A stretch of 41,611 nt of DNA from a virus (Duplodnaviria; Heunggongvirae; Uroviricota; Caudoviricetes), in the IMG/VR virus record IMGVR_UViG_2541047801_000004, positions 1 through 41,611 of that record; one strand, given 5' to 3'. The notes under the pieces are model-generated. The model was not told where the DNA came from, made no database searches, and saw nothing but the letters and a program-made list of their open reading frames with translations. Numbering within the stretch: the stretch's first letter is position 1; the number at the start of each line of letters is the position of its first letter. The position numbers and the translations under genes were made by a program. Shown here one piece after another: positions 1-31,937 of this stretch.

Positions 1-207
1 TCAGCTATCAATGAGAAAATAAAATATAAATAAATCAATGCATTGAAACAAACCACTTAGCAGATACCACGAAAAATACCATGTCTCAATAATAGAGCTG
101 TCTACAGGCTGTTCAGACGAACAATATGGCCGCTCTACTCCTAATAGAGTCCTTAGCTCGGTCACATCACTAATTTCAACATAGATGTGAACAAAATGAG
201 GCATCAA
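1..207 (-). CDS. hypothetical small protein (68 aa), AT-rich, divergent from the ATPase gene
   Basis: Complete ORF from ATG at 207 to the stop at 1-3; no recognisable motif; may be spurious. Confidence 0.25.
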   Translation of the reverse strand: MMPHFVHIYVEISDVTELRTLLGVERPYCSSEQPVDSSIIETWYFSWYLLSGLFQCIDLFIFYFLIDS

Positions 208-223
208 CGCACCTATTCAGTTA

Positions 224-1738
224 GTGTATTTGATATCGTATGTGGCAACAAAAAATGGAGTTACAATCTTGAAAGTAAGCGAGTTATCTAGCCAAATTGG
301 CCGACTTTACGGCTTAAACAACATCAACATAATTATGGGCCGAAACGGTGCGGGAAAAAGTCGTTTCCTTCGTGATATCGAACAAACAATCAGCCAGAAC
401 AAGCAGCAATTTTATGTCCGGTATGTAAGTCCAGAGCGAGCAGGATCGTTCAAGCGTGATGGCACCGTCCTCACAAATATGAGCGACAACCCCGAATGGC
501 TGAGGCACACTCGGGCAGTTAATCAGGCAAGCAACTTCAAAGCTGCATCGGCTATGCTATTTCGCGAGGCCGAGACGCTTTACTTACGTCGACTTGCCAA
601 TACTCCGGAAATTCGAACTGATCTAACGCGAAACTTTCAGACAGACCGATTAAGTAAAATTAATCAGCTTCTCACTAACATTTCGCTCGAGATGGGTAAT
701 GTCGATTATGAGTTTCGATCACTTGTAGATGGTCAGATTATTGATCCGGCCCAAATCAGTAGCGGTGAATCGGAAGCGGTTGCATTAGCCGCGGAAATCA
801 TCTATTTCTTCGACACAATAGATCCGGAGAAATTCAACGTACTCCTCCTCGATGAGCCTGATGTACATCTGCACCCCGACCTCCAAGCTAGACTGGGCAA
901 GCTGATAATCAGTATGCTCGACGAATTTAGAACACACGCGAACAGTATTGCCATATGCTTATCCACCCATAGTTCCCCGCTCGTCTGTTCTCTTGCCGCC
1001 TCCCCATATGTATCAATCGGCACGAAGAGCTTTGCAGTGAATGAAATCTCATTGATACCGGCCAGCGATGAACTTCGAAAGATTGCACCATTCTTCGGGC
1101 ACCCCCTATCGCTTTCTCTTAGCGAAGACGCTGCATTAATTTTGGAAGGAGAGGACGACGAACGAGTCTGGCAACAAGCGGCCAGAACATCACAGGGTCG
1201 AATAAAAATCTTTCCCGTACTAGCAGGTAGCGTAGATCAACAGAGTCAACTTGAGGATTTTTGCGTAGACCTCCTTAGTACACTCTATGACAATCCAATC
1301 GCCTTTTCCCTTCGTGATGGCGATGGTGTAATCAACGAGTCGCTTGAACATCGCCTACCTCTTAAACGCTATCGCTTACGATGCTACGCTATCGAAAATG
1401 TTCTTTTGACTGATTCATGCCTTGCAGTAATGAATGTTACATGGGTGGAATTTGTAGACGCAGCCAAAAAATGGGTTGAGGATAATCAAACACACTCCGA
1501 CATAGCGTTGATTGCAAAACTAATGGAATCGAACGACCGATTGCGTCACAAGAAGATCAAGAAAATCCGCCAACTCGTCTGTGCTATTGTTGAGTGTAAA
1601 AAACCTTGGGAGGTAGTAGTTGGACAAGCAATCGGGGCATTGACCAGAGAAGACCTTGAAAACTCGAATATGTTGATCGATTTTCTTGGAGGAGAGATGG
1701 TCAGCGACGTCATCTTCAGGGACGCAATAAACCCATGA
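224..1738 (+). CDS. ABC-type ATPase fused to a Toprim/DUF4435-like nuclease domain (OLD-family / PARIS / AbiL-like), candidate anti-phage defence protein
   Basis: Walker A GRNGAGKS, ABC-signature-like SSGESE, Walker B LLLDEPDVHLHP, H-loop STHS; C-terminal acidic motifs ILEGEDDE and LRDGDG resembling the Toprim E and DxD; low GC. Start uncertain: GTG 224, or TTG 269 preceded by GGAG. Confidence 0.6.
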   Translation: MYLISYVATKNGVTILKVSELSSQIGRLYGLNNINIIMGRNGAGKSRFLRDIEQTISQNKQQFYVRYVSPERAGSFKRDGTVLTNMSDNPEWLRHTRAVNQASNFKAASAMLFREAETLYLRRLANTPEIRTDLTRNFQTDRLSKINQLLTNISLEMGNVDYEFRSLVDGQIIDPAQISSGESEAVALAAEIIYFFDTIDPEKFNVLLLDEPDVHLHPDLQARLGKLIISMLDEFRTHANSIAICLSTHSSPLVCSLAASPYVSIGTKSFAVNEISLIPASDELRKIAPFFGHPLSLSLSEDAALILEGEDDERVWQQAARTSQGRIKIFPVLAGSVDQQSQLEDFCVDLLSTLYDNPIAFSLRDGDGVINESLEHRLPLKRYRLRCYAIENVLLTDSCLAVMNVTWVEFVDAAKKWVEDNQTHSDIALIAKLMESNDRLRHKKIKKIRQLVCAIVECKKPWEVVVGQAIGALTREDLENSNMLIDFLGGEMVSDVIFRDAINP

Positions 1739-1753
1739 GAATGACCTGATACT

Positions 1754-2149
1754 ATGACCACGATTGATCCGCCCTCATGGTATCAGTATTTATTTTATAA
1801 CCCGCCTCTCAATACACCAAGAGATTGCGGTAAAGTGGAGCAGCATGATTACCAGCTTTATCTGGCGATAAATGATATTGAGCATACGAAAACGAAAGCA
1901 ATGTCATCTAAGACCAATAGTATCTGCGAGCAGTTCCATAAAACGATACTGAACGAGTTTTATCAGGTGACGTTCCGCAAAAAGTTATATGATGATCTTG
2001 AAGCATTACAATCGGTTCTTGATGAATGGCGGGTTCACTATAATAATGAGCGAACCCATCAGGGAAAAATGTGCAGTGGCCGAACGCCGATGGAAACGTT
2101 ACTTGATGGAAAGCACATCTGGGATGAGAAAAACTTAAGCCAGATGTAA
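1754..2149 (+). pseudogene. IS transposase C-terminal remnant (IS481/IS3-like integrase core tail)
   Basis: Only the C-terminal roughly 110 aa of a DDE transposase is present (CEQFHKTILNEF...YNNERTHQG...GRTPMET); the N-terminal catalytic part is absent. Confidence 0.55.
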
Positions 2150-2236
2150 TCTGACAGATACCTTTATAAATAGCCGGTAATTGTCAGATCAGGTCTGATC
2201 TAATACAACTTAACTGTGTTATGAGCAATACTGAGG

Positions 2237-3013
2237 ATGGATATGGAACCAGAGAAATTTGCTGAAACTGCAATAGGATTTACCAAAAGCCCTCTTGGTA
2301 TCATTGCACTCTTTATTGTTCTCGTTTATGGATTTGCCTCTTTCGTCGTTGGCTTTGGTAATGGCTTATCAGAGCATATAGCTCCCCTTATTTATTTCAT
2401 GGTTTTCTTTCCTGTCATTGTGTTTCTTGGCTTTCTCTGGCTTGTTGCGAAACATCATAATAAGCTTTACGGGCCGTCAGATTTCAAAGATGAAAATAAT
2501 TTTTTAAGAGCGCAAATAGCTACAGCAGCATCATTGACCGCCGCCACAGCAAAACAGCCTGAAAATAGTGCAGGGGTCACTGAAAGCCAACTGCGAAAAA
2601 TCGTCAACGTTGTATCCAATGCAAAACGGCAGAGTAAGCATGAAAAATGGCGAAATCGTATTTTATGGGTGGATGATCGACCAGAAAATAATGTTTACGA
2701 AAGACAGGCATTTGAGGCACAGGGAATAGAGTTCGCTTTAGCTCTTTCAACTGACGAAGCCTTAGAATTGTTAAAAACAAATAAGTTTGCAGCTATTATT
2801 TCGGATATGGATCGCAAAGAAGGGGCGCAAGAAGGTTATGTCTTACTAGAAAGATTACGCGCAATGGGAGACAAAACTCCTTTTATGATCTATGCGTCCT
2901 CAGATCTACCAGAGCACAAGAGAATGGCGAGAGAAAGAGGTGCAATTGGCTCCACTAATCGAGCAGAAGAACTCTTTCAAATTGTCATGGGTGCGATTAC
3001 CAATGGCTCATAA
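2237..3013 (+). CDS. membrane-anchored protein with C-terminal receiver (CheY-like REC) domain
   Basis: Two N-terminal hydrophobic helices; C-terminal domain with REC-like signature positions (WVDDRPENN, IISDMDR, MIYASSD, EHKR); low GC. Confidence 0.55.
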   Translation: MDMEPEKFAETAIGFTKSPLGIIALFIVLVYGFASFVVGFGNGLSEHIAPLIYFMVFFPVIVFLGFLWLVAKHHNKLYGPSDFKDENNFLRAQIATAASLTAATAKQPENSAGVTESQLRKIVNVVSNAKRQSKHEKWRNRILWVDDRPENNVYERQAFEAQGIEFALALSTDEALELLKTNKFAAIISDMDRKEGAQEGYVLLERLRAMGDKTPFMIYASSDLPEHKRMARERGAIGSTNRAEELFQIVMGAITNGS

Positions 3014-3230
3014 CAAAGCCATTAAATTCGCCCCCTACGGCTACGGTTGCCGGGCGCTCACAACGGCCAGTATCTCATTTGTCGATTTGATCGATCTCAT
3101 TGTAAGCACTTCCGGCTAGACTGTTTTGGAATACCGCCATTTTGTTGGTAATGGCTTTTATCTTTAGGCCATAGCCGATGTTATAGAGTTACGGCCTTAA
3201 AAATAGAAGTCATACACTCAATGAAAAACC

Positions 3231-3263
3231 AATAAAAAATGCCAGTCAGCAAACTGACTGGCA
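3231..3263 (-). terminator. rho-independent terminator ending the late/lysis transcript
   Basis: 10-bp perfect stem TGCCAGTCAG/CTGACTGGCA with loop CAAA, followed on the minus strand by TTTTTTATT. Confidence 0.6.
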
Positions 3264-3409
3264 TTAAAGTTAGTTGGAAAGGCTTAATTTACTATTTATA
3301 GCCAGTCCTACTCCCACTCAATTATTTACGGCATGCATAACCAATTGACTGGTAACAACTTTCTGTAACCTTATTTTCACCGTACCGTTTTATATACCGT
3401 CACCGGAAA

Positions 3410-3907
3410 TCAGTGCCACGATTTTTGCTTCTTCAGTGAATCGTATTGCTGCTCGCAGAATTCCCCTGCGATACGATACTTTTCAGCCTCAGCTGCTGTT
3501 GCGTTGTAAACTCGGTTGCTTTCTTCAAGCATGTCGGCGAGCACACCGATGACCTTGCTGGCTGGCGTGCCAGGGGGGAAAGATCCGGTATAGTGTTCGG
3601 CGAGCCGCCTGGTTTTGTCAAGCTCGGCGCGCATGCTGTCAGCAGCGGAATTAGCATACTCAGCATCAGCACGCGCCGCATCGATACGGGATTGTGCTTC
3701 ACGTTCAATTTGTGTTTTCTCCTGCTCACGCTGTGACCTTAACTTATCATCAGCCTGTTTCTGATCTTCCTTCGCCTGAGCATACCCGGCATCGTACTGG
3801 CGGCTGCCATGCACATTCCAGGCAACAACGCAGCTGGCCACCAGAGCAGCAAGCATCGACACGATAAGCAACTGTTTCCAGTATGCTTTCACGAATGCCT
3901 TGATCAT
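3410..3907 (-). CDS. i-spanin (Rz-like)
   Basis: N-terminal TM helix followed by a charged coiled-coil-like region; last gene of the lysis cassette; an embedded lipoprotein ORF lies in another frame. Confidence 0.7.
   Translation of the reverse strand: MIKAFVKAYWKQLLIVSMLAALVASCVVAWNVHGSRQYDAGYAQAKEDQKQADDKLRSQREQEKTQIEREAQSRIDAARADAEYANSAADSMRAELDKTRRLAEHYTGSFPPGTPASKVIGVLADMLEESNRVYNATAAEAEKYRIAGEFCEQQYDSLKKQKSWH
3433..3681 (-). CDS. o-spanin (Rz1-like lipoprotein) embedded in Rz
   Basis: Signal peptide with lipobox LLTAC, then a proline-rich mature region; entirely inside the Rz gene in a different frame. Confidence 0.55.
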   Translation of the reverse strand: MRRVLMLSMLIPLLTACAPSLTKPGGSPNTIPDLSPLARQPARSSVCSPTCLKKATEFTTQQQLRLKSIVSQGNSASSNTIH

Positions 3908-4128
3908 ATACTTACCTTCGGCTGAAATCGGCGAACGTTAATTGGCTCACCATATGGCCATGACCAATTCAGCCAGGTAAATGTTTTCAGCTCGCACATC
4001 GCATCGAAAAATTCACCAGGATCGATGTCGGAATAGCTGCAAACTATTTCCAGACCACGTTCTGTTTCTTGCAAAGCAACTGTATCTGTTTCCCAGCGGG
4101 GAATGAGCAAAGAAAATAGTTTATTCAT
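3904..4128 (-). CDS. hypothetical 74-aa protein between endolysin and Rz
   Basis: ATG at 4128 overlaps the endolysin stop (ATGA); no recognisable motif. Confidence 0.4.
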
Positions 4129-4751
4129 AAAAGCACCTTCTTGGCCGAAAGATACCGTACACGGCGATCGTCGATGCCGTTCCGGCCACCATTGATAATC
4201 AGAGTTACACGTGCAATATCGCCGGTATACTTCATGCATCCTTTGCTGGCGAAGAACCACGCCGCGCTACGAGCCGCGTATTCGTCCTGCACCAACAGTT
4301 CAGGATTCTCCAGCAGGTCCACTTTCAGGCCGTTTCCGCAATCACGATAGTTATTCAAACCGGTAATCTGGATAAGTCCGCGGCCACGGTAATTCCAGCC
4401 ATCACCAGAGGCATTGTTCCCCATGCGTTTGCTGTACACCAGATTGGCAATCGCACGCTGGCGCTCAGGTGGCAATGGTGGCTCGCCTGCACGACGACCC
4501 AATGCGTTAGCCTGTCCCTGAGTAAGACGACCGGCACGAACGAAGTTAGCCAGTCCGGTGACGCTGTAATTGAAATTCTCCTGCAACCTGGTGAAGCCAC
4601 CAGACTCATGCCCGACCTGAGCAATAAACATTGCCTGATCTTCGGGTTTTCTGATACCAAACTCTTTCATCGCAGAAGTTATATGCGAGAACCAGCGTGC
4701 GGCCAGAGCCTCGCTAATACCAGCAGCTCGCTGGAATTGTTTAATCTCCAT
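4125..4751 (-). CDS. endolysin, glycoside hydrolase family 19 (chitinase-like lysozyme)
   Basis: 208 aa from ATG 4751; GH19-like motifs ([27 protein letters not shown]); follows two membrane proteins. Confidence 0.75.
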
Positions 4752-5049
4752 GTTTAGACCTCGATGTTTTGAAAATCTGAACAACGTTACCGCGTGTTTT
4801 AATAACCGCGGCAAGCATGACAGCGTTGATAATGACCTCAGATAAATCCACAGCCATTGGCGTACGTAACCAGATTGCATAGGCGACACGAACAGGAATA
4901 CTGGCCGCAGCAACAATAAGGAAATAAGCAAGCCACCCTCCCCATCTTCGATGTTGAGAGCCGTTACGCCGGAATGTGACAACGCGAATTGCTATGCCAG
5001 TACAAATAATTGCATTGGTGATAAGCAAAACAAGCTCATTAGTTACCAT
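4741..5049 (-). CDS. holin/antiholin-like membrane protein
   Basis: 102 aa, about three predicted TM segments, immediately upstream of the endolysin, overlapping neighbours. Confidence 0.5.
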
Positions 5050-5440
5050 CGCCTTTTCTCCCAGGAATTAACTGGCGTGGATTATCAGAACGGTGATAGA
5101 GCCATATACCAATTCGCACTGCGACAATTGCTGACACGAATGCGCCAGCAGAGAAAACAATCCCTTTCTCGAAAGAGTCCTGCGTGATGGTAGGTATCAT
5201 GCTGGCTATTCCGATAAGAATTGATGTTGTTGGTTTGTAAAAGAGAAGACCACAAAGAAAGCTGAGTATCGACAAGAGTACACGACGACGAACAGGATAC
5301 TCTACAGCAGAGGTAACAAATATTACCGCACCAGCCAGAGCACCGAGAGCCACCTCTGGCGGAACGCCGTAGACGACAGAGGCCAGCGCACCCAAGCTTA
5401 ACCCTTGATTCAGTGAATCCGCCGTAACCGTGCCATTCAT
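5039..5440 (-). CDS. membrane protein, putative holin
   Basis: About 133 aa with four hydrophobic segments; ATG 5440 with GGTGG RBS (alternative GTG 5449); first gene of the lysis cassette. Confidence 0.5.
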   Translation of the reverse strand: MNGTVTADSLNQGLSLGALASVVYGVPPEVALGALAGAVIFVTSAVEYPVRRRVLLSILSFLCGLLFYKPTTSILIGIASMIPTITQDSFEKGIVFSAGAFVSAIVAVRIGIWLYHRSDNPRQLIPGRKGDGN

Positions 5441-5537
5441 GGTAACCACCGTTTATTGTGCATAAAAACCCCCTTAGAAGATGAGGTCCATCATACACAA
5501 TAAACCATTTACGGATAATAATTACCTAAACTTGGTC

Positions 5538-8173
5538 TTATTTTGATTCCAATAGTTCGAGTCGCTCTTCAATACGATCGCATCGGCGGCGCTGATATGC
5601 AGCCTCAAGCCAAGCGCACTGGTCAGGCCGTATGCCCCATGAACTACCCGCTTTTTTAACCAGCCTCTGTTCTCCGGTGTCATATTCGACGGTGACCAAC
5701 TCACCAGACGCATCGGTAATCTCTTTAGTCGCGATTACCGGCTCAAAAATATCGTCCCACTCGTCATAGCAAAGAAGGCCAAATCTGGTTCCATCAATTC
5801 CGTGCGCCAGGAATACATCTCTTACCTGCTGAGCCATGACGCCAAAATGCCATCTGGCACCATCGCCCTTCATGGATATAGCGTCGAGCCATCGATACGC
5901 CACAACAGAAATATCGCCCCAGGCATCAAGAATGCTGTCTCTATCAGAAGAAAGCATTTCACTTAAATCTGATATTGCCTCGGGATTGGTTTTCAGCGTG
6001 GCATCTGATGAAACGGTTGGGGCATTTGCAAAGTAGGCGTCTTTAATACGAAACGATGCCTGACCAAAATTATAGGTATTGTCAGCAAACGGGCGAAGAC
6101 CTGTATTATAAAACCGCCAGCGTATGGTTCCTCCCAATGCTGTCGGGTCGCTGTTGCATGCAATATCCACCGTGGTGGCAGACCTAAACACAGAAGAACT
6201 ACCGCCCAATACCAAGCTATTTGCGCTAGCTGTAGCCTGCTGGTCAAGGACCAATATTTTCTGAGAGTTTGTAGTTGCACCGGCATATGATGATGCAGTG
6301 ATGCGGTTTAATTGGTTTGTATCAGGATCTGCGTTTTGCTGAATGGTTAAGTTAGATGCCCACTGTGCCGGTCGCTGGCGCACAAATACAAAGTCACCAG
6401 AAGGATTAGTTGCAACCAAATAACTAATGCCACTATCAGATGAATAATAGTTGACTATAAAAGTCTGATTATTCGCATTCAGTATTTCAACATATGTGCT
6501 GGAAGGGATTGCCACGCCAGATATATCAGCAATGCTGACAGTCCCTGTGTAAAAATTAAATGCCTTCTGACTCATCTCCTGCATATAGCGAAGAATTTCA
6601 GTCATGTTAGTGAACAACGTACCATCTACAGGGTTAACAATCCCCTTCGCACTACGGGGATATACCCCAATGCTCGCGTGATCGATATCAAATCCGCGGT
6701 AAAGCCTGGATGCAGGTGTAAAATCGATAGCATCTTTATCAGTGGAGAAATCTTCGAAAATAACCAAACCTGAATTGTAAGGTTCAGAGCCAGTTCTTTC
6801 CTGATGAATGTAAAGTGAATAAATGGATTTTCCATCCTGAGAAACACAAACGCCTTCATTTTCTATGCGAGTGACGTTCAATCCTGCGGCTTTCATTAAA
6901 TCCATCATGGCCTGAGGATGAAGCATTGATTCAGTTCGCTTTGTACCGTCAGGGTTAAAAACTTTGCTGCCCTGATATTCGTTATATCCTGCGCTTCCTG
7001 CCCCATCAGCTATGAAGCCGCCATAGCCGCAGACAAAGTAGTTATCACCTACCGCAATACCCTGACGCTTGTTGAAATAAGGCGCATAAGGTGAGGTGCT
7101 TTTAGTTACATACCCAACATCATGTAACGGCAGCGTTATAGTTGACAGGCGATTGAAACCACTGTCGAACACTGCAAGTACAGTTCTTGTGATTTTCTGT
7201 CCTACTTCTGGCGCATTCTGCTCAACGAGCCATATACCTCTTCTGTAGCTGAACTGGTTGAATAATCCAACATCATGGTTTTGTACAAGAGGCAGATTGC
7301 TTCCGTATAATGCCCCCTCCATATTAAATTCACGCAGTATTCCGTTTGTGTGACCAACAAACATTTTTTTTGGGCCATAGTCTGACGTAACCACGATTCC
7401 TTCAGCAGCGAAGCCTGGGCCGCCAGCCTGAACATAGAAATAACCTTGATAAATACCAGATATGTTAAATACTGCGACGACATTATTCGTCTGTTTAGGC
7501 TCAAATGGATAAGTGATGTATATCAAATCTTCGCTAACGCAGAATCCTTGAGGATACATATAAGTTGCTGACGGGTTAGCAGCCATAATCGCATCATATT
7601 CAGGAAAAAGAAGCGGCATCGTAGCTACAATCTTTCTTTGGTGATTTGTAAAAATATCGTTTTTAGCGCTGTTAGGTGTAGGCGTTACACCTCCAGTAAA
7701 AAGATCATCAACATAACCTTTATTGACAGCATCGTTTCTGTCAGTGGCATTTGCTAGATTTGATATCTTATTATTTTTTGCATCATAATAGTTAGCCAGA
7801 ATGCTTGGTTTTATAAGTGCTAACCTCATCCATGAAAAACACTTTTGAATAAGCATTGTCAGTTTATCGAACGCGTCTTCATGTACCTCAGCGAAGAACT
7901 TACCCTGATTACGCAAATCAGTATCCTGCGTAACCGGGAGCTCTCGTGATATAGAAATATGATAACCGTTAGCCAACGCCTTCGACAGAATTACATTACC
8001 GCCATTATATCCTCCAGCATTGGTTACTGTGTAGTCAGTATCCAGAACCAATTCTGTTACGTTCCCGTTCAGGTCAGACACCTGAACAACCAGGTCCGGA
8101 AGGTATACGGAAATGATGTCGTAGCTCCGTTACCAGTGTATTCGTTGTGGTCAACTTCGGTTGAGACCGTCAT
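5538..8173 (-). CDS. tailspike/tail fibre protein with C-terminal intramolecular-chaperone (peptidase S74-like) domain; 5' end frameshifted (possible pseudogene or assembly error)
   Basis: ATG 8173 with GGAG RBS encodes MTVSTEVDHNEYTGNGATTSFPYTF, then hits TGA at 8069-8071; the 847-aa body (DLVVQVSDLNGNVTEL...) is in another frame open from 8129; the frames meet at 8097-8099. Confidence 0.7.
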
Positions 8174-8244
8174 GTTAAATCTCCAGATAGTCGCAGCACC
8201 CGTTGCGCCGCATATCTGGTTATTCTATTACCTGAAAAACCACA

Positions 8245-8263
8245 TATGGATAGATAATCCATA
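8245..8263. promoter_or_regulatory. 19-bp perfect dyad TATGGAT-N5-ATCCATA in the tailspike/antirepressor divergent control region
   Basis: Perfect 7-5-7 inverted repeat, 72-90 bp upstream of the tailspike ATG. Confidence 0.35.
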
Positions 8264-8276
8264 AATACGAAAAGAT

Positions 8277-8293
8277 ATTACCTTTCAGGTGAT
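8277..8293. promoter_or_regulatory. operator-like 17-bp dyad (ATTACC TTTCA GGTGAT)
   Basis: Member of the recurrent ATTACC-N5-GGTAAT family. Confidence 0.45.
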
Positions 8294-8329
8294 TTGCAAA
8301 ACGTGCTGGATAGCAAACAAATTATTTGC

Positions 8330-8349
8330 TACTGTATAAATATACAGTT
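8330..8349. promoter_or_regulatory. LexA (SOS) box TACTGTATAAATATACAGTT
   Basis: CTGT-N8-ACAG with AT-rich centre, near-perfect match to the enterobacterial SOS box; 20 bp upstream of the RBS of the 8369 gene and overlapping a TATAAAT -10-like element. Confidence 0.65.
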
Positions 8350-8368
8350 ATTGCATGGAGAAGATAAG

Positions 8369-8626
8369 ATGCAGCAGTATCACTATCCACTGGAAGACGG
8401 ATTTACCGAAAGGATTCACACGCCGGGAGGCGTCAGGTCACTGGTGGAGGGATCGCACTTGATGAAATTACTCCGGGATCTCGATAAGGATGGATTTAAT
8501 GTCGATGGCCCACTTGCCGAACTGACTGCACTGATTAACTACGTCACCAGCTCACAGATGTCTATGCGGGATCTGCAAACACATCTCGACTATTGTGCCG
8601 AACAATTACGAAAACAAACCCGGTAA
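8369..8626 (+). CDS. small antirepressor-like protein (paralogue of the Ant C-terminal domain), putatively SOS-inducible
   Basis: 85 aa; GGAG RBS; clear similarity to the C-terminus of the Ant at 9772-10458 (H-P-GV...L-E-S-LM-LL...DG...AELT...RD-QTH); LexA box immediately upstream. Confidence 0.6.
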   Translation: MQQYHYPLEDGFTERIHTPGGVRSLVEGSHLMKLLRDLDKDGFNVDGPLAELTALINYVTSSQMSMRDLQTHLDYCAEQLRKQTR

Positions 8627-8632
8627 ATTTAA

Positions 8633-8650
8633 AGGCCGCAAGAGCGGCCT
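8633..8650. terminator. hairpin AGGCCGC-AAGA-GCGGCCT between convergent genes
   Basis: 7-bp GC-rich stem; same stem sequence as the hairpin at 10483-10500; flanking T/A runs are weak. Confidence 0.4.
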
Positions 8651-9377
8651 ATCGTTTCGCTTTGTGCTCATCCCAGCACGTTTTGCACCATGCCATTAAG
8701 CCGTCCGCATTTTGATTATTAGGGTAAAAGCTGGTTCGTTTTCTGCGGACATTACAAATTGGGCACCACTTCATATGGCGTGTATTCTTTGGGCCATCGA
8801 GACACCTTGCACACCATTTAGTCAATCCATCTGGATTTTTTGACGATTTCCTGAATTTTTCATATGGAAGGTTTATTCTGCATCGCAAGCACTGCTTGCT
8901 ACCACTTGAAACTCTGTTAGCTGATTCTTCTTTTGGCGGCGATACAGAAGGTATTCTTGCTGGCTCTGATATTGCCTGAGGTGCTTTTTTAGATGACTGA
9001 GACGATATGTCATCACCAGGGAATCTTCCATGATATGCCGGACGCGTTGACACTCCAGGTGGAATCTCAGCTGTAAACGGCTTTGGCTGAATCAGTTGCC
9101 TCTCTTTTGCTAACTCCTGCTGTTTATAATATGTCTGGATTACCGCACTATCATAAGCAGGAGGTGCGGAAATATTAGGCGCATTACCTCCAGTTTTTTG
9201 AAACTGAGTAGAGGTGTGTTCTATCACCTGTGTACGATTAATCGTTATCTCCCCATCTTCGGTCTTTATCGTTTTGTTATGATTAACGACCGTACGATCA
9301 GAGATCTTAGTCTTGTTCTGGTTGATAACGTAAATAATCACCGCAACCACACCAACAACTATCCAGAAAACTTCCAT
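8649..9377 (-). CDS. membrane-anchored Cys-rich (zinc-ribbon-like) protein, possible lysogenic-conversion or exclusion function
   Basis: N-terminal TM helix; C-terminal repeated CxxC motifs (CLRC...NPDGLTKWCARC...KWCPIC...NADGLMAWCKTC); GAGGAAAA RBS; operator-like dyad directly upstream. Confidence 0.55.
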   Translation of the reverse strand: MEVFWIVVGVVAVIIYVINQNKTKISDRTVVNHNKTIKTEDGEITINRTQVIEHTSTQFQKTGGNAPNISAPPAYDSAVIQTYYKQQELAKERQLIQPKPFTAEIPPGVSTRPAYHGRFPGDDISSQSSKKAPQAISEPARIPSVSPPKEESANRVSSGSKQCLRCRINLPYEKFRKSSKNPDGLTKWCARCLDGPKNTRHMKWCPICNVRRKRTSFYPNNQNADGLMAWCKTCWDEHKAKR

Positions 9378-9396
9378 TGCTTTTCCTCACAATAAC

Positions 9397-9413
9397 ATTA
9401 CCTTAAAGGTAAT
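9397..9413. promoter_or_regulatory. operator-like 17-bp dyad (ATTACC TTAAA GGTAAT, perfect half-sites)
   Basis: Best copy of the family; lies between the divergent 9377 gene and the ant leader. Confidence 0.5.
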
Positions 9414-9489
9414 ATCTTGCTTTCAGGTGATCAAGCGTTAAACGCAATCAACCAAATACGGTTGATTTCAATGTTTCTTCGCGCTTATC

Positions 9490-9506
9490 ATTACCTTTAC
9501 GGTAAA
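9490..9506. promoter_or_regulatory. operator-like 17-bp dyad (ATTACC TTTAC GGTAAA) in the ant leader
   Basis: Family member about 90 bp downstream of the 9397 site. Confidence 0.4.
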
Positions 9507-9771
9507 TTTACATCGCACTCCTCTTGTGCCATAGTAATCGGGCACTGGCAAAATCCAGTGCCGGGATTGGCGTCCCGGATTACTACAGAGGCACATATGC
9601 CGCATAAGCGGTTTTTTTATGTGTAAAGCGCACCTATTCTATGGTGGGCTGTGTGGGGGCACCGAAAGGTGCGCCGGGTCCTTTGTAGCCGGTTACGCCA
9701 ACCCTGCACAGTTCACCACCAACCGATTGGCGTCGGTAGTGGTGATTAACCTAACTACAAAGGTGATCACT

Positions 9772-10458
9772 ATGACTGCTAACGTAACCCCATCTGTTTT
9801 TCATTTTGAATCAGAAGCAACCATTCGAGCCATTGTTATTGATGGAAATCCTTGGTTTGTTGCCAAAGACGTTATTAAAGCTCTTCAACTGACAAACCCC
9901 ACTATGTCAATAAAATCTCTTGATGATGATGAAAGGGCTAAATTTAACTTAGGCCGTCAAGGCGAAACCAATATTATCAACGAGTCAGGCCTCTACACAC
10001 TGATCCTCCGCTGCCGCGATGCGGTGACACCAGGCACTATCCCATACCGCTTTCGTAAATGGGTTACAGGTGAGGTTCTTCCTCAGATCCGCCGCACCGG
10101 AAGTTACATTAAAAACTCGCTCCCGCAAGAAGAACGCATAAAGATGGTTGCCGACCAGGTAGCCAACGCCACAGCATCAGCAGTGATGCAGGCAATGAAG
10201 ATAGAGAACAAAACCTACAGCGCCCCACTAAAGCCCGGCTACCGCAGTCTGATTCACTCGCCGTCTGGTGTTCTCGGCCTGACGGAGAACTCACTGCTGA
10301 TGAATCTGCTGAACCAGTTACAGGAAGACGGGCACGACGTATCGGGCGCGGCGGCGGAGTTGACCACCATGTTCTGCTACATCGTCGGTGTGAACAAATG
10401 CCTGCGTGATATCCAGACGCACGCGGAGTACATCAACGACAAAGCAGGGTTCTTCTGA
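9772..10458 (+). CDS. ant: antirepressor (Bro-N domain, Ant-like)
   Basis: ATG 9772 with AAAGGTGA RBS; Bro-N-like N-terminal domain (IRAIVIDGNPWFVAKDV...INESGLYTLILRCR...FRKWVTGEVLPQIRRTGSY); long structured 5' leader. Confidence 0.75.
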   Translation: MTANVTPSVFHFESEATIRAIVIDGNPWFVAKDVIKALQLTNPTMSIKSLDDDERAKFNLGRQGETNIINESGLYTLILRCRDAVTPGTIPYRFRKWVTGEVLPQIRRTGSYIKNSLPQEERIKMVADQVANATASAVMQAMKIENKTYSAPLKPGYRSLIHSPSGVLGLTENSLLMNLLNQLQEDGHDVSGAAAELTTMFCYIVGVNKCLRDIQTHAEYINDKAGFF

Positions 10459-10475
10459 CGGGCGGTGGCATTCGT

Positions 10476-10500
10476 TAAAACAAGGCCGCTTTTGCGGCCT
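10476..10500 (-). terminator. rho-independent terminator after the lipoprotein gene (end of the upstream late transcript)
   Basis: Stem AGGCCGC/GCGGCCT with 4-nt loop, followed on the minus strand by TGTTTTAA. Confidence 0.5.
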
Positions 10501-10512
10501 GTGACATGTCAC
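10501..10512. repeat. 12-bp perfect palindrome GTGACATGTCAC (copy 1 of 3)
   Basis: Exact palindrome abutting the terminator hairpin between convergent ant and lipoprotein genes. Confidence 0.8.
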
Positions 10513-10515
10513 GAC

Positions 10516-10929
10516 TTATAAAGATGACTGATATTTTACAACTCTGTTCATGGCATCTTTTTTCACCGAGCTGATATCAGTTCTTATTTTGGCTTCGTCA
10601 TTACTGTTTATCATGCTATTAACTTTTTGCACTGACATGCCGTTTCTTTCAGCCATTGCACATACAGCAGCATCGTATGAAGAACTCGCTGCGATGGATA
10701 TCACCTTGTTACACTCAAACACAGCACCTTCAGCAATATCAGATGCCGATGATGCTGGCTTGGTATAAGTCTTGACGTAGTGATCAATACAACTATCCTT
10801 CGCCGTCTTGGCAAGAGAAAAATCCATTTTAACTTTGTCGCAATATGCCTTATCAACACCGTCATAAACATCATAGGATGTCGAGCAAGCGGATATCAAA
10901 AATACCGATAACAGCAATAATTCCTTCAT
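10516..10929 (-). CDS. prophage lipoprotein (possible exclusion/moron function)
   Basis: Signal peptide with lipobox LISAC; 137 aa; sits between ejection-protein genes and the ant module. Confidence 0.6.
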   Translation of the reverse strand: MKELLLLSVFLISACSTSYDVYDGVDKAYCDKVKMDFSLAKTAKDSCIDHYVKTYTKPASSASDIAEGAVFECNKVISIAASSSYDAAVCAMAERNGMSVQKVNSMINSNDEAKIRTDISSVKKDAMNRVVKYQSSL

Positions 10930-10938
10930 TGTTGTTCC

Positions 10939-13413
10939 TTATTGCGGAGTGACATCCTGAGGTCGCCACCAGTATGTCTGGTTAAACTCTTTCTTCGAAC
11001 GTTGCTCCATTTTACGCAAATAGCCTGGTGAAAAATACTCCTGCATCTGGTTAAAGATCATATGATCGAGAGCCGCCTTCAAGTACCAGAGATTCGCACC
11101 TGGCATCAGCCCCTTCCCCAGCTTAACCAGATCACCACCAGTCTGCTCACTCTTCCCTTCCACAGCATTTAGCGGTATGCCCTGAGCTATCTTCACTACG
11201 TCATCAACCAGACCAGCTACCGGGCCAAGCATCGACGCCAGCGCGCCGCTCCCGTACCTAGTGTGGTCAGAGAAAAGAAAATCACCGTACAACCCAGCCC
11301 CGCCACCTTTTAAAAATGCATTTATCCAGAATTTAACCATGTGGTCACCGGTCATTTCCTTTGGATTTCTCCCATTAATAAGATCAGTAATCTGCATGGA
11401 AAGAGCACCAAGCATGGTTGTGCTTGCTAAAAACGTTGCTATATATGCTGCACGCCCACCAGCAGACGGCATACCCATAGCGCGTGACCAGTGACGCATA
11501 ACAACCGAGATAGGGAACGATTTAAACAGGAAAACACTTCTCGTTAATTCACCTTTCCATGTTCCACGCTGAAGACCAGACCCTACGAACATCTGCTCAC
11601 GTGCGCCCGGTGTAATAACAGCCATATCAACTTCTTCAGTTACGGCACCGAGCAGTTTACGCATTGCCTCAAATTTCACGCGTTCAGGCTCACCAAGATG
11701 TTTAACTGCTGAATCAGGGATACGCATAATGCTTTCCGGTGTCAGCATCGTATTATTACCGTTCCCCCAGTCCTCCTGTTGCGCCAGCTTCCATACGCTC
11801 CAGTCTGTGTCAGTAATCCCTTTACTTTTCAGGATACGAAAATCAGAGTCATCGAGGCTACGAAGGTCTGGTGTCCGTGACACTACTTCTCCCAGGCTTC
11901 CCATCATGGTTACGCCATAGGCGCGCTTGTGCGCATCTGACCATGCTGTAAGCCCACTGGCACGCATTACCGCCGTTGCCGCCCAACGAGACACTGACGG
12001 CCCCATATTATCCATCGCCCAGCGGTTAACGCTGCCAAGTAGAGATTCCATCGCCAGACCAGCGCGGCGCGCCCGCGCAAGTTCTGTACGGTTCGTTGGG
12101 TCCATAGCTTCAAGCTGGTTGCGGAATAACTGGTTCATTGGAAGGTTGGTAACCTTCGCAGACAGATACATGGTTCCAAGATCAGAGAACGATGACAGCA
12201 ACGCGGATCCGAGTCTGCTGGCAACCAGCCAGTTGCGGATATTGTCAGACCATCGCGCGATGTGCGGATTCGCTACAGGCTGTGTCTTTCCGGAAATAAA
12301 GTTGTACAGATTCTCTGTGTTGTTCGCCAGCCGCTCGACTTTACCGGTTTTACTCGGGTTAGCTGTTGCCGTTTCTGCCTTCACCTGATCAAGAAGAGAG
12401 CGGAAAACATGATCGGGGTTTGGGCCATATGTTTCCACCAGTGCAATATCTTTACTGATACCTTCCAGGTGACCGACCATGATTTCCCATAGAGAGCGAT
12501 CGCCATAAAGTTGCTGATATTGCAGATAGGAATCTGCATCTTTGAAATGTATCTGTCGTGATGCATTACCACGGTTAGCACGTGCGCCGGAAATTCGCAT
12601 TCCGGTATCAGTAAGCTTATTCAGCCCACCAGTAGCGATCGTGTTATAAGCCTCTCCAAGAAATGCAGACAACTCGGCATCGTTCATCAGTTGTCCATCG
12701 GCTCGGATATAATATTTGCGATCCAGCTTACCTATAACATCGCTAACCCACTTATCCTTTGATACCGCCCCAACCTTTTCCATAGAATGATGTTGAGGGA
12801 TCCCCCAGTTTTCGAGATAGCCAATGTCCCCACCAGCATCATTAAACCGGCGGCGCAGTAGATCTGTCACTTCTCTCCACGCCTTAGCACCTTTTCTTGC
12901 TTTAGCATTGCCAGTATTTTGCCCTCGCATTTCATATACCAGGTCACGCACGCCAGCTTCATCTTCAAACAGGCCAAAAAAGCGAGGATCAACTGCTTCA
13001 AATGCCTCTTGCAATTGACTCAATGCATAATCACGAGTGGCTTTTGTTCTGGACTCAACAGAGAGGAAATTCGATTTACCGTCTGCATTAAAAGCAATAG
13101 TACGGTTAAGAGCGCCAAGTTTCCCATCAGCCCCTTGATAGCTATTGATAAATTTATCCAATCTCTGACGTGCGGCTATAGTGAGGGCCACACGACGTTT
13201 CTTTAATGCCGCTTCTCGCTGTAATTCTTCAGATGCCAATTGTGCTGCACGATATAGCCGCTCTGATTCGGAAAGTTGTCTCCACGACATCGGGTCATCA
13301 CGAGCAATGGAGCGCATATTTCGATAAATGCGGTCTTCAATGTTCTGTATTTCTCGCGCCGTTAACGTGCGCTGCGCCGCCTGCTGGACCGCTTGTATAC
13401 ATTCCTGTCTCAT
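10939..13413 (-). CDS. internal virion/ejection protein (large)
   Basis: 824-aa ORF within a run of large structural ORFs following tail tubular genes; no catalytic motif recognised. Confidence 0.55.
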   Translation of the reverse strand: MRQECIQAVQQAAQRTLTAREIQNIEDRIYRNMRSIARDDPMSWRQLSESERLYRAAQLASEELQREAALKKRRVALTIAARQRLDKFINSYQGADGKLGALNRTIAFNADGKSNFLSVESRTKATRDYALSQLQEAFEAVDPRFFGLFEDEAGVRDLVYEMRGQNTGNAKARKGAKAWREVTDLLRRRFNDAGGDIGYLENWGIPQHHSMEKVGAVSKDKWVSDVIGKLDRKYYIRADGQLMNDAELSAFLGEAYNTIATGGLNKLTDTGMRISGARANRGNASRQIHFKDADSYLQYQQLYGDRSLWEIMVGHLEGISKDIALVETYGPNPDHVFRSLLDQVKAETATANPSKTGKVERLANNTENLYNFISGKTQPVANPHIARWSDNIRNWLVASRLGSALLSSFSDLGTMYLSAKVTNLPMNQLFRNQLEAMDPTNRTELARARRAGLAMESLLGSVNRWAMDNMGPSVSRWAATAVMRASGLTAWSDAHKRAYGVTMMGSLGEVVSRTPDLRSLDDSDFRILKSKGITDTDWSVWKLAQQEDWGNGNNTMLTPESIMRIPDSAVKHLGEPERVKFEAMRKLLGAVTEEVDMAVITPGAREQMFVGSGLQRGTWKGELTRSVFLFKSFPISVVMRHWSRAMGMPSAGGRAAYIATFLASTTMLGALSMQITDLINGRNPKEMTGDHMVKFWINAFLKGGGAGLYGDFLFSDHTRYGSGALASMLGPVAGLVDDVVKIAQGIPLNAVEGKSEQTGGDLVKLGKGLMPGANLWYLKAALDHMIFNQMQEYFSPGYLRKMEQRSKKEFNQTYWWRPQDVTPQ

Positions 13414-13418
13414 TTAAT

Positions 13419-15221
13419 TTAACCTCTCAAGAAACACGCCACAGCGACATCAAACAGGCTGGAATCCTGTATTGCCTGCTCACTTTCCCTGTTCGCTTCA
13501 TCCAGTACTTCACGCGCTCTGCGCGATTGTGGATTACCATCATCATCCAGCACGGTGATTATCATGTCAGGTGATTCAAGCAGCGAGTCTTCAGCTATAC
13601 GCAGATCAATATCTCCTGCCGGATCTGCCATCATTTTTTGTTCTGCCTGTTGCAATATATTACCGGGCTCAAAAGGAGCTACTTCGTCTGGCGTCCTGAC
13701 CTCTGCTGTTTTATAGAATGAAACAGCCTGAGCATTAAGTTCACTTTCTGCCTGCTTTCTCCGAGCCAGTTCTGCTCGAGCTTCAAAAAACTGACCGCCA
13801 GGCTCGTGCGGTGCCAACGCGTTACGGGAAAATTCCAGGCGTTCTTGTGCCTGCCGGATTCGTTGATCAATATCGCGAAGTCTGGCCTGTTTATCTGATC
13901 GAGCACGAGACAAAGCTTTACCGCTACCGGTTGGCTCTTCTGCAAGAATTTGTGCACGCTGTTCAGTGAGATTTTCAATAATTCGTTGGCTATTAGCGAT
14001 TTCAGACTGGTAAACCTGTCTATCTCCACGCGGCAAAAGCTGCGCGGCCTGTTCTTCAAGCAACCGATTTTCTATAGCGCGCGCCGTTACTCCATCATCT
14101 ACAGATGACAGAGCCTCATTAACTGCCTGAGACAGCAGACTCTTGCGCCCAGGAATTTCACTGAAAGATGCAGACTCAACAATGCTGGCAACGTCTACAG
14201 GTCTCCCCTGGCTAACATCAGACATAGCTTTTCTCAGAGCCTGAATGTGAGAATTGCGCGAAAGCACGTTGATCGGCACGCCGGGCGCAATATCAATTTC
14301 AGCATGATGAGCGGCATTCGCCGCCAGTGCAGCATCGATATCAACTGGTGAAAAATTTGGTGCGCTTGTAGACTCGCCGCGAGAGTTAATAAATCTGCCG
14401 ACACCACCAAACGCCACCCCAAGAACAGCATCAATAGCAATTGCCTGTCGATCCAACACATCATACTGGTTAGCCATTTCGCTATAGCCACCATCACGAA
14501 GCGTTTTTGCAGTAAGCCCACGCTGTGCCATACCGAACGCAATATTTGTACCTGCGGCATAGGCAATATCTGGCGTTGCACGTACTGCTGTTGCTGCTGC
14601 GCGTCGCACTGAACTTTCACCCGTCCGCGCAAGCTGAGCCGCCACACCTTCCGCCAGCGCACCACCAGCACGTAACCCGAGGCTCATAGGGATCAGTGTT
14701 CCGGCACCAGCAGTAATACCCTGCACTAATCCCGCTTCCTGCGCTGCCCTGAAATCAACCCCCTGTGCTGTCAGCCGTTCAAACTCAGAAAAACCCTGTA
14801 GCGAAGTTACCGCCGCTGCACCTCCGACCGGACCACCGAGCGTTGTACCGACAACAGCCTGCCCGCCCATATCGAACAACCCATAAAGAACCTGCCCGGC
14901 GGTTCCGGTTGTCGCCGCATCAGGCGTCAGCCGCTTAACCTGCTGCTCTGCTAGTTTTCTCTGCTCGGCAATGTATGAAACTGAAGTGTCATTGAGCGAG
15001 GTGTTTTCGTTAACAAACTGAGCAATCGGGGATACGATTTTATCCATCCCTGCCCATAGCAACTGATCTGGCTTTGCCACCAGCCCGGAGTACAAACCAG
15101 ACAATGCCGCTCCTACAGCATTGTCGAAAAAACCAACATCACTGTTAAAGCCCGCTGGATTTGATGCTGCTTCGTCAAGTTGCTGATTCTGGTTTACTGG
15201 ATTAAGGCCAAAGTAACTCAT
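13419..15221 (-). CDS. internal virion/ejection protein
   Basis: 600-aa ORF, Ala/Gly-rich, in the structural operon. Confidence 0.55.
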   Translation of the reverse strand: MSYFGLNPVNQNQQLDEAASNPAGFNSDVGFFDNAVGAALSGLYSGLVAKPDQLLWAGMDKIVSPIAQFVNENTSLNDTSVSYIAEQRKLAEQQVKRLTPDAATTGTAGQVLYGLFDMGGQAVVGTTLGGPVGGAAAVTSLQGFSEFERLTAQGVDFRAAQEAGLVQGITAGAGTLIPMSLGLRAGGALAEGVAAQLARTGESSVRRAAATAVRATPDIAYAAGTNIAFGMAQRGLTAKTLRDGGYSEMANQYDVLDRQAIAIDAVLGVAFGGVGRFINSRGESTSAPNFSPVDIDAALAANAAHHAEIDIAPGVPINVLSRNSHIQALRKAMSDVSQGRPVDVASIVESASFSEIPGRKSLLSQAVNEALSSVDDGVTARAIENRLLEEQAAQLLPRGDRQVYQSEIANSQRIIENLTEQRAQILAEEPTGSGKALSRARSDKQARLRDIDQRIRQAQERLEFSRNALAPHEPGGQFFEARAELARRKQAESELNAQAVSFYKTAEVRTPDEVAPFEPGNILQQAEQKMMADPAGDIDLRIAEDSLLESPDMIITVLDDDGNPQSRRAREVLDEANRESEQAIQDSSLFDVAVACFLRG

Positions 15222-17731
15222 TGCGGAATATCTCCGGAGAATCTCTGACGCTTCTGTGTCAGATCAAGAACAACAGGAGAACCATCATCCTTCAGCAGAT
15301 ATCCAGTCCCAAGTTTTACCAAGTACTGACTATCGCCGTAACTTTGCAAACCATACTGACCAAGCGGTGTTTTTATCCCTGTGCCGACAACTTGTTCATT
15401 CCAAGCCTGATTAACCTGCTTATCGAATTGCTCTGCAGACATTCCCCACGGCAAAAGAACATTCCCCATTCCGTTATAGTCATGCACGCCACCTGTAGCT
15501 ACGTTAACAGCCTGTTTCCAGATATCATTGTCAATTTCGCCTGATACCACGCCTTTTTTCGCCATCACACCAGCGTAATAGTCCTTTGCGATCTCGTATG
15601 CCATTGATGCCCCCTGAGCATCACCAGCAAATGCATCCTTCACCATGTCAGAAAACTCAAGGCGAAGATCAGCATCTTTAGGCATCGGAATACCTTTCGC
15701 ATCATCAGTACCTTTACGAGCCGCCGCGCCAGCAAGAATTGTCTGCGCAGCGGTTTCAGGAGACACGGAAACATCCGGATTAAACCAGTTTTTTTCTGCC
15801 AAAATACCACCTGGCTTATCCATCAGTATCCCGGCAACGGCAGCAGATGGAGCGTTGGCACTGATCTGCTGTAGTGCTGACATATACACCTGCCCACCAC
15901 CAGTGCTTTGCCTGATGGTATCGAGATATGCTGCCTGTTGGGAAACGGGCGCATCACGAAAGAAAACACCGATCTGATTGGCCTCGTCTTTGGAAAAGAA
16001 CGTCAGTGGAGTGCCATATGACTTGGCAAGATCACTAACCTGAGCGGCACGCAAGGCAACGCTCTGTCCAAAGTTATCCTTATTGCTCATGTCGATAGGC
16101 TTTGCCTGTCCGGCGGCAAGAGAGAACTGCACAGGATCCGATTGCCGCTGCTTTATCACCTGATTTGCAGCCGAAACAACGTTGTCATAAAGAGCTGCGC
16201 GTGCCGCATACCCCTCCCCTGTCTCACCAGTATCCTGGCGTAATTGCTCAACATATGCTGTAATGCTGCTTGTCGGCATGTTGCGGAAAGAGCCTATATA
16301 CTGTCCGGCGATCTGCGTATTCTTAAACTCGGTATATCGCAGGTTTCCTTCTCTGACTCCATAAGCTGCAATAAAATCAGCCTCACCAGGTGGGTTAGGA
16401 AATTCAACTCCACGCATATACGCAGCTGTCGCATCTCGAACCCGGCTGTCAATCATCGTTTTATATTCAGCCTGCTGCTGCCGACGCAGTTGATCCGCCT
16501 GTCGCATAAAACTTGCCTGCGCCTCAGAAGATGCCGCATCGAATGCTGCATTACCGGTATAGCGTTTGGTGTTGGTTGGAATTGTTGATAAACCAAGTGC
16601 TGCACTGACACCAGCAGTTAACTGCTGATCACTGTATGGCTGGCTACCGTTCTCATGATGAATAATGGCTGCACAAAGCGCCTTCAGGGTATCAGGATTT
16701 GATGCATCGAGAGGCTCATCAGCAGAAACGCCAAGTTGTTCGCACACTGCTTTGATATACGACATAGTGTCATTTTTATCAGTGGGCGGTGCCCAACGAT
16801 TAATTATCTCGCTGACGGTATCGATACCCTGCCGCTGATACGACATCAGGTTCCGCCCTAATGCACGAATCCCGTGTTCAGGTGTTTCGAATTTAGCAAA
16901 TCGACCATCATCACCGGTCTGGCCTACCCACGGATTAGTTTTGCTGTATTCGAGATTTCCTGGGTTATTGTTGCGTATGCCACGGGCACGATCGGAATAG
17001 CTACTATCTGCTACAGCACGGCGAGCTCCAGCAGCAGTATCACTTAACTCGCCATTACTTTGGATGAATGCGGTCGCATTGTTTGCCGACCACTGGGACA
17101 ATGCGGCATCAGCAACCTTCTCTTTAAACTCGATTTTCTTGGCCTGTATTTGCTCGTCGCTCCAGCCATGCGCAATGCCGTAATCCTCAATTTGCTGGAA
17201 AGTTTGCTTATTAGCCAATACGTATGCGGCGTTGTCGCCATACAATGCTGCGGCATTTTTACCATTGTTCAGCAGCGTCGCCTGAAACTGGCCTTCTTCG
17301 TAGGCATTTATTTGCCCTATCTCGTGCCGCCCGGCCTGCGTAGTGAACTGAATACGCTGCTGCTGCGCCTGCTGCATGAAAGCATTACGAGCCTGTTCAT
17401 CCGGCAGCGACATAGCCAGTTGTTCGATCTGAGCATCAAACTGCTGCGTATACTCCTGACCTTTTCCAATAGCATTTTTCCCTTTCAGGTTAAGCAAACC
17501 TGTTTCAGGGTTATTCAGCAGATCGCTGCTTATCTGGCTTAAGCTAAGAGAATCATCCTGAGCCATAGCAACATTCGCACGCTGTTTTGCCTGCGCAATA
17601 ATACCTGCATATTGCTCTGCAACATCGCCAAGTACATCACCGACATTTGGTGTCTGAAACGATGAGAATCCCTGCGTCGAAATCCCTCTGCTCTGAACCT
17701 GACGGCCCGATGTTGTTGGTACAACTGGCAT
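15218..17731 (-). CDS. internal virion core protein (T7 gp15/16-like position)
   Basis: 837-aa ORF; position after gp13/14-like small proteins. Confidence 0.55.
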   Translation of the reverse strand: MPVVPTTSGRQVQSRGISTQGFSSFQTPNVGDVLGDVAEQYAGIIAQAKQRANVAMAQDDSLSLSQISSDLLNNPETGLLNLKGKNAIGKGQEYTQQFDAQIEQLAMSLPDEQARNAFMQQAQQQRIQFTTQAGRHEIGQINAYEEGQFQATLLNNGKNAAALYGDNAAYVLANKQTFQQIEDYGIAHGWSDEQIQAKKIEFKEKVADAALSQWSANNATAFIQSNGELSDTAAGARRAVADSSYSDRARGIRNNNPGNLEYSKTNPWVGQTGDDGRFAKFETPEHGIRALGRNLMSYQRQGIDTVSEIINRWAPPTDKNDTMSYIKAVCEQLGVSADEPLDASNPDTLKALCAAIIHHENGSQPYSDQQLTAGVSAALGLSTIPTNTKRYTGNAAFDAASSEAQASFMRQADQLRRQQQAEYKTMIDSRVRDATAAYMRGVEFPNPPGEADFIAAYGVREGNLRYTEFKNTQIAGQYIGSFRNMPTSSITAYVEQLRQDTGETGEGYAARAALYDNVVSAANQVIKQRQSDPVQFSLAAGQAKPIDMSNKDNFGQSVALRAAQVSDLAKSYGTPLTFFSKDEANQIGVFFRDAPVSQQAAYLDTIRQSTGGGQVYMSALQQISANAPSAAVAGILMDKPGGILAEKNWFNPDVSVSPETAAQTILAGAAARKGTDDAKGIPMPKDADLRLEFSDMVKDAFAGDAQGASMAYEIAKDYYAGVMAKKGVVSGEIDNDIWKQAVNVATGGVHDYNGMGNVLLPWGMSAEQFDKQVNQAWNEQVVGTGIKTPLGQYGLQSYGDSQYLVKLGTGYLLKDDGSPVVLDLTQKRQRFSGDIPQ

Positions 17732-17743
17732 CTTATTATCCCC

Positions 17744-18283: not shown

Positions 18284-18747
18284 TATTTTCTCTCCATGTG
18301 AAATCTGTGGAAATTAAGACCAAGAGCACCATAAGGCGCGGCTTCTTCAAGCCTGAATCCAAGCCAGTGCAGCCATGCTTTGGCAACATGGTTTCGCTCG
18401 TCGACGTAGTTTTCCAGGCGCGGATAAACTGCCAGCATCTGCTGCAATACAGGGCGGCAGTGGCGAAGAAATGTCTTCTGATATTTTTCAATACGGCTGG
18501 TTCCTACCAGCCAGGGCGTACCATTGCCACCGATCATTGACGCCGGAGATACGCCAAACATGGTTACCAGTTCTCCGTTCGCAAATCCTGACCAGGCCAT
18601 AGTCGCAGTGCGAAGACCAACACGCAGCGCATCTTCGGTAGTCATCAGCGATACCGCATACAGTTCGTCAATATCAGCCTGACGAACATCCGGCAAAATC
18701 ATCTGAAGATGCTCTTCGGTAGCGGGAACAATTCGAATATCGATCAT
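18283..18747 (-). CDS. hypothetical virion-associated protein
   Basis: 154-aa ORF, start overlapping the stop of the tubular B-like gene. Confidence 0.45.
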   Translation of the reverse strand: MIDIRIVPATEEHLQMILPDVRQADIDELYAVSLMTTEDALRVGLRTATMAWSGFANGELVTMFGVSPASMIGGNGTPWLVGTSRIEKYQKTFLRHCRPVLQQMLAVYPRLENYVDERNHVAKAWLHWLGFRLEEAAPYGALGLNFHRFHMERK

Positions 18748-31936: not shown

Positions 31937-31937
31937 A

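Follow-up and report, generated by a model that had tools for sequence, protein, structure and literature searches.

The window analysed here is a 41,611-nucleotide stretch of DNA recorded as a virus of the Caudoviricetes. On its minus strand an ATG with an upstream GGAG motif opens a frame that stops after 34 codons, and the body of what looks like a tailspike gene continues in another frame. This raises the question of whether the gene is really broken, how it came to be so, and what the break would mean for the phage. An earlier note made from the DNA letters had proposed that the tailspike gene is frameshifted near its 5' end, and comparison with otherwise identical intact alleles, from which the gene differs by a 16-nt gap, agrees with this. 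We put at roughly 85% the probability that a real, recent and lineage-specific 16-bp deletion has made the single tailspike gene of an otherwise intact prophage a pseudogene.

The prophage and its tailspike

The window is a prophage of E. coli HVH 171 (GCA_000458575.1), located at the 3' end of guaA. Its structural half matches phiV10 at 96.6% nucleotide identity across 80% of 25 kb, and the element is therefore a Uetakevirus (phiV10/epsilon15-like) prophage. The closest complete genome is that of the canine isolate P4 (NZ_CP072688.1), in which the element sits between guaA and yfgI. In P4 the element is bounded by a 15-nt direct repeat (TGAGTGGGAATGATT) that corresponds to the 3' end of guaA (31-45 and 42296-42310 of the extracted P4 locus). 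The right-hand copy in HVH 171 is at 18079-18093 of its sequence and overlaps window positions 1-3. The window spans the attR core to the start codon of the integrase (41611), so the prophage is essentially complete.

The P4 element contains genes for an integrase, RecT, nucleases, a repressor, replication proteins, terminase, portal, protease and major capsid protein. It also includes those for a Bbp16 cement protein, a gp10 staple protein, a core protein like gp14 of T7 and large virion proteins, as well as a tail fibre gene and a lysis cassette. Between positions 1 and 30300 the window differs from P4 by 15 substitutions and the 16-nt gap, and none of these substitutions falls in the tailspike gene. 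The other coding sequences of the P4 prophage are present at full length in the window in 44 of 51 cases, at 97-100% identity; the remaining seven are small genes of the early region, in a segment that differs between the strains. The tailspike gene is the only broken gene among those shared with P4.

The early region is mosaic in comparison with P4. About 2.5 kb is replaced at 30300-32853, a segment with differing ead/Ea22, DUF551, DUF4752 and ASCH genes. In addition, the DUF1064 gene has a 3-nt indel (33195-33197) and a DnaT-like gene an 18-nt in-frame deletion (34800). Unlike the tailspike deletion, these early-region differences are all in-frame. An MT-A70 family DNA methyltransferase (39516-40163, plus strand; PADLOC MTase_II, E=8e-77) is encoded beside a PerC-family regulator. 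The window encodes no restriction partner for it, and it appears to be an orphan methylase. A tRNA-Arg gene (anticodon TCT) is present at 27352-27428 on the plus strand, and is annotated too in the P4 prophage and in O157 typing phages. Four large virion genes (10942-21218, minus strand; 824, 600, 837 and 823 amino acids) gave no Pfam match with an E-value of 1e-3 or below, and their products are presumably epsilon15-type tail-hub and ejection proteins.

Three cargo genes lie between the lysis cassette and attR, inside the att boundaries, at 269-1735, 1754-2149 and 2243-3010, all on the plus strand. The first encodes a 489-aa ABC-type ATPase (AAA_15/AAA_21) that weakly matches AriA, PtuA, GajA and PDC-M01A in PADLOC (E between about 1e-17 and 1e-9). 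The second is an rve_3 fragment of the IS3 family, and the third encodes a protein of 256 amino acids that has a receiver domain at its C-terminus. The three together may be a moron of the defence type, in which a partner nuclease was not recognised.

The earlier note had already taken the gene for a tailspike gene. Several lines of sequence comparison, namely PHROG matches, the phiV10 backbone and an N-terminus like those of epsilon15 and phiV10, support it as encoding the tailspike, or receptor-binding protein, of a podovirus prophage of the epsilon15/phiV10 type. PHROG tail-protein families that differ from one another downstream match residues 1-163, with E-values down to 4e-102. The reconstructed N-terminus has 76% identity over 161-163 amino acids to epsilon15 gp20 and the phiV10 receptor-binding protein. 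Residues 1-163 are 73-80% identical to the spike N-termini of epsilon15, phiV10, PAS61, SPN1S, Tyrion and others, which always align from residue 1 and in one frame. The canonical N-terminus that the note had given matches epsilon15 gp20, phiV10, PAS61, Tyrion and a Klebsiella prophage when aligned.

This N-terminal region has a well-described role in related phages. Epsilon15 gp20 is bound to the phage through its N-terminal domain (10.64898/2026.07.31.742079). In phiV10-type receptor-binding proteins the N-terminal domain is a genus-conserved anchor, joined in modular fashion to a variable receptor-binding domain (PMC10408124). The solved spike Dpo31, whose domain D1 (PDB 28lx/8ck1) is matched by residues 1-130, attaches to the tail via D1 (PMC13317679). 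Residues 1-36 are the best-conserved part of the anchor, with 90.7% pairwise identity and 28 of 36 positions invariant among six intact spikes; this is an argument from conservation and not from structure, since AlphaFold2, run on the single sequence of the intact N-terminus (167 residues), gave a mean pLDDT of 36.7.

The C-terminus contains a Peptidase_S74 domain (PF13884), which scores 47.1 bits against a Pfam gathering cut-off of 22, and an endosialidase chaperone (3gw6) matches residues 665-883 with E=3e-39. The central region between them (residues ~165-665; 6090-7592, minus strand) has no match in Pfam, NCBIfam or PDB sequences. It matches PHROG families only, which include one called 'tail spike protein' and one labelled glycerophosphoryl diester phosphodiesterase, and it is presumably the receptor-binding or enzymatic part.

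The interrupted reading frame

The features of the locus are collected in Table 1. When all coordinates were re-read, the start codon, its ribosome-binding site and the stop after 34 codons proved to be where the earlier note had placed them, and the 847-aa body was found in the -1 frame relative to the first open reading frame (ORF1).

Table 1. Positions in the window of the tailspike gene, its parts and the neighbouring lysis genes
Feature	Position	Strand	Remarks
GGAG Shine-Dalgarno of tailspike gene	8181..8184	-	7-nt spacing to ATG; read from sequence
Native start ATG of tailspike gene	8173-8171	-	
ORF1, 5' remnant of tailspike gene	8069..8173	-	34 codons, stop TGA 8071-8069; alignments
Deletion junction, sole remaining TCCG copy	8097..8100	-	alignments, base-by-base difference list
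Remainder of tailspike gene, -1 frame relative to ORF1	5538..8096	-	D32-K883 and stop
GTG, first conventional start (ATG/GTG/TTG) in body frame	8079..8081	-	847-aa product
Surviving part of N-terminal virion anchor, residues 32-163	7701..8096	-	PHROG, epsilon15/phiV10 identity, PDB Dpo31 D1
C-terminal intramolecular chaperone region	5541..6197	-	Peptidase_S74 core ~6008-5799
Lysis cassette downstream of tailspike gene	3413..5440	-	two holins, GH19 endolysin, 74-aa ORF, DUF2514 protein; intact

The native GGAG forms a duplex of -6.4 kcal/mol with the anti-Shine-Dalgarno sequence, and the intact alleles carry an identical site. ORF1 encodes MTVSTEVDHNEYTGNGATTSFPYTFRTWLFRCLT, which is made up of 26 native codons (M1-R26) and eight out-of-frame codons (TWLFRCLT) before the TGA. 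The body consists of 852 codons at 8096-5541, with its stop codon at 5540-5538. Its frame is closed upstream by a TAA at 8132-8130, is open from 8129 and reads through PDLVVQVSDLNGNVTELVLDTDYTV, so that it overlaps ORF1 by 58 nt (8129-8072). The GTG at 8081 precedes the ORF1 stop by 10 nt and lacks a good Shine-Dalgarno sequence, the anti-Shine-Dalgarno pairing being weak and bulged (-4.4 kcal/mol). The product that begins there is present in GenBank as EQT01004.1, and gene callers use the same start.

Two other genes lie close to the start of the tailspike gene. Just upstream, at 8652-9377 on the minus strand, is a gene for a 242-aa protein with a hydrophobic N-terminal segment and two C-terminal cysteine-rich CxxC...WCxxC repeats, for which a Stc1 match is below threshold. 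It is directly followed, upstream of the tailspike gene, by a G+C-rich terminator-like hairpin (8650-8633, minus strand). Divergent from the tailspike gene is an 85-aa ORF (8369-8623, plus strand) with about 40% identity to the C-terminal third of a BRO-N antirepressor-like protein (9772-10455, plus strand); by sequence it looks like a partial paralogue of this neighbour.

Alignment to intact alleles reveals that 16 nt (TATTTTCAAAAAATCC) are missing between window positions 8097 and 8096. The intact alleles read ...ACCTTCCG TATTTTCAAAAAATCC GACCTGG..., and the gap is flanked by a 4-nt direct repeat, TCCG, whose two copies are 16 nt apart in these alleles, which makes the exact placement of the gap ambiguous across the repeat (8100-8097). 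In a base-by-base comparison the gap is the sole nucleotide difference from P4 in the whole tailspike gene, and residues 32-883 of the P4 protein match 8096-5541 at 100% identity (tblastn). The loss affects codons 26-31, which encode RIFKKS in the intact protein. R26 is kept, its codon changing from CGT to CGG, and residues 27-31 are lost. Its length is not a multiple of three, and a premature stop follows at codon 35. The replacement of 18 nt (the RIFKKS codons) by 2 nt, as the note had described it, is equal to this 16-nt deletion.

Since the deletion puts a stop after 34 codons, we regard the locus, on its sequence, as a probable frameshift pseudogene derivative of a tailspike family of the Uetakevirus type. 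The 16 bp would have been lost through slippage in replication, or by microhomology-mediated deletion, between the two TCCG repeats, and slippage between these 4-nt repeats is the most likely mechanism. The event is judged to be recent because the tailspike gene has no further mutations.

Occurrence of the junction and rival readings

The intact allele encodes a protein of 883 amino acids (WP_097564300.1) and is present in E. coli SCU-101, C25, P4 and FP4. Its DNA is 100% identical to that of the window across the gene and the upstream region, but it contains the 16 nt and so forms one ORF. One of these strains, P4, also shares the prophage and the guaA insertion site with HVH 171. Among 5,426 complete E. 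coli genomes, 533 contain a match to a 501-nt query around the site. The best-matching ones (SCU-101, C25, P4 and FP4) have 96.9% identity over 517 record bases, which is a perfect match apart from the 16 extra bases. A 60-nt query centred on the junction matches the same 5,426 genomes in two pieces that span 76 nt and never in one, and the deletion is present in none of them. It is also absent from 50,697 phage records, in which the matches are in a single frame from residue 1. Exact-junction scans of the GTDB representatives, IMG/VR and JGI metagenomes gave no match, the GTDB collection being a weak negative as it holds one genome per species.

The truncated product has one NCBI protein accession, EQT01004.1, described as 'hypothetical protein G826_02585' of E. 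coli HVH 171 (4-3191958). It comes from scaffold KE700518.1 of assembly GCA_000458575.1, and this scaffold is 100% identical to window positions 1-18081. In a contig collection whose sources include Logan, the exact truncated product is encoded on five contigs, four of them of 10-50 kb, and the otherwise identical intact protein on 146. Contig 121 of the Logan assembly of run SRR21973086 has the identical junction and is identical to HVH 171 over 14,181 nt; this run may derive from the HVH 171 isolate itself or from a clonal relative, and the three other non-NCBI contigs too may be the same isolate re-sequenced and not independent isolates. The literature, when searched, had nothing on HVH 171, on SRR21973086 or on the locus tag.

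It could be supposed that the genome itself has the 16 nt and that the published assembly alone lost them. Of the NCBI assemblies just one carries the deletion, the gene is otherwise perfect, and the deleted block includes runs of T4 and A6, as an artefact would have it. However, the same junction is found in the independent Logan contig and five contigs encode the exact truncated product. Logan makes a separate assembly of each run, therefore the deletion was not made by the GenBank assembler. A clean loss of 16 nt bounded by a 4-nt direct repeat would also be more typical of a biological deletion than of a homopolymer miscall. An error in the assembly, which the earlier note had offered as an alternative, is thus very unlikely. 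The culture may be heterogeneous for the deletion, or the mutation may have been acquired in laboratory passage. Even less credence can be given to a programmed -1 ribosomal frameshift in the overlap (8129-8072), which would fuse the two frames into a near-full-length functional spike. The two frames do overlap, and a -1 shift would indeed lead from ORF1 into the body, but ORF1 contains neither a slippery heptamer (X XXY YYZ) nor any homopolymer of at least four bases, and a fusion product would still be without residues 27-31. Moreover, all homologues examined, both those in phage records and those in 533 E. coli genomes, are single ORFs with the extra 16 nt. None has the two-frame layout, which in the window arose when an otherwise 100% identical allele lost these bases.

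A further reading is compatible with a real deletion. Termination at the ORF1 stop followed by reinitiation at the GTG could yield the 847-aa body as a free, trimeric and active depolymerase that is off the virion. The GTG is close to the ORF1 stop, the C-terminal S74 chaperone, on which trimer folding depends, is intact, and the homologous Dpo31 is soluble, trimeric and active without D1 (PMC13317679). Against this, the start codon is a GTG with a poor Shine-Dalgarno sequence, and only residues 1-36 of an anchor of about 163 residues are removed, which might cause misfolding instead of the clean loss of a domain. Low-level termination-reinitiation is possible, whereas an active free enzyme as its outcome seems unlikely. 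It is more doubtful still that a reinitiated spike with a truncated N-terminus would be folded by the S74 chaperone and freed on induction as a depolymerase not bound to the virion. If true, such a free depolymerase would bring a phage enzyme closer to being domesticated by the host. The preferred reading is a genuine deletion that inactivates the tailspike gene.

Consequences for the phage and comparison with known systems

With the deletion in place, ribosomes starting at the native ATG would make a 34-residue peptide and then stop, and no full-length spike would be produced. The remaining 852 codons in the -1 frame would have no efficient route to translation. The earlier note had held that the tailspike lacks its particle-binding N-terminus unless translation reinitiates. 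The start of the anchor is lost, as it said, but reinitiation at the GTG would not restore the anchor, because the product would be without residues 1-36 of the tail-docking domain. By analogy with Dpo31-deltaD1 this product might be a soluble enzyme, but it could not dock on the tail.

The lysis cassette genes downstream are full-length matches to P4 at 100% identity (annotation from P4, with Pfam labels). An induced prophage could still excise, replicate, package its DNA and lyse the cell. There is no second gene with the same anchor in the window, therefore the particles should be spikeless and fail to adsorb; without host-binding spikes they should be non-infectious. A compatible spike could be provided in trans by another prophage of HVH 171, outside the window and its flanks, which are the part of the genome examined here. 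More speculatively, Rho-dependent polarity could cut the expression of the lysis genes, since some 2.5 kb of mRNA ahead of them would go untranslated. A scan for the sigma-70 consensus upstream of the tailspike gene on the minus strand found no promoter-like site.

The HVH 171 prophage is probably unable to spread, though automated tools would call it intact. EQT01004.1 (847 aa) represents an N-terminally truncated pseudogene product and is unsuitable as a tailspike reference. The loss of the tailspike is ordinary prophage decay, another instance of a well-known kind; its practical value is limited and it has no bearing on any open question. It does provide a clean natural case in which a microhomology-mediated deletion inactivates the sole receptor-binding protein and all the other genes shared with P4 are untouched.

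The spikes of epsilon15 (gp20) and phiV10 (PhiV10p25) have the same anchor, backbone and modular layout as that of HVH 171. In contrast to these, the HVH 171 ORF is interrupted at codon 26. Its central region is unrelated to the beta-helix and petal of epsilon15, and its C-terminus is a Peptidase_S74 chaperone.

Particles that assemble without tailspikes are familiar from gene 9 mutants of P22, which are non-infectious. Dpo31-deltaD1, which is without the N-terminal domain, stays soluble, trimeric and active and cannot dock (PMC13317679). Both of these are engineered or conditional and have been studied experimentally, whereas the phenotype of the HVH 171 prophage is predicted from its sequence.

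The closest analogue in kind is the frameshift in stf of lambda PaPa, which reportedly (the work is that of Hendrix & Duda in 1992) splits the side tail fibre gene into orf401 and orf314. There too a small frameshifting deletion affects the gene for a receptor-binding fibre in a temperate phage, and the gene is split in one lineage and a single ORF in its relatives. The two cases are expected to differ in outcome. Lambda is still infectious, stf being accessory, whereas the infectivity of the HVH 171 phage should be lost, because its spike is the sole receptor-binding protein found in the element.
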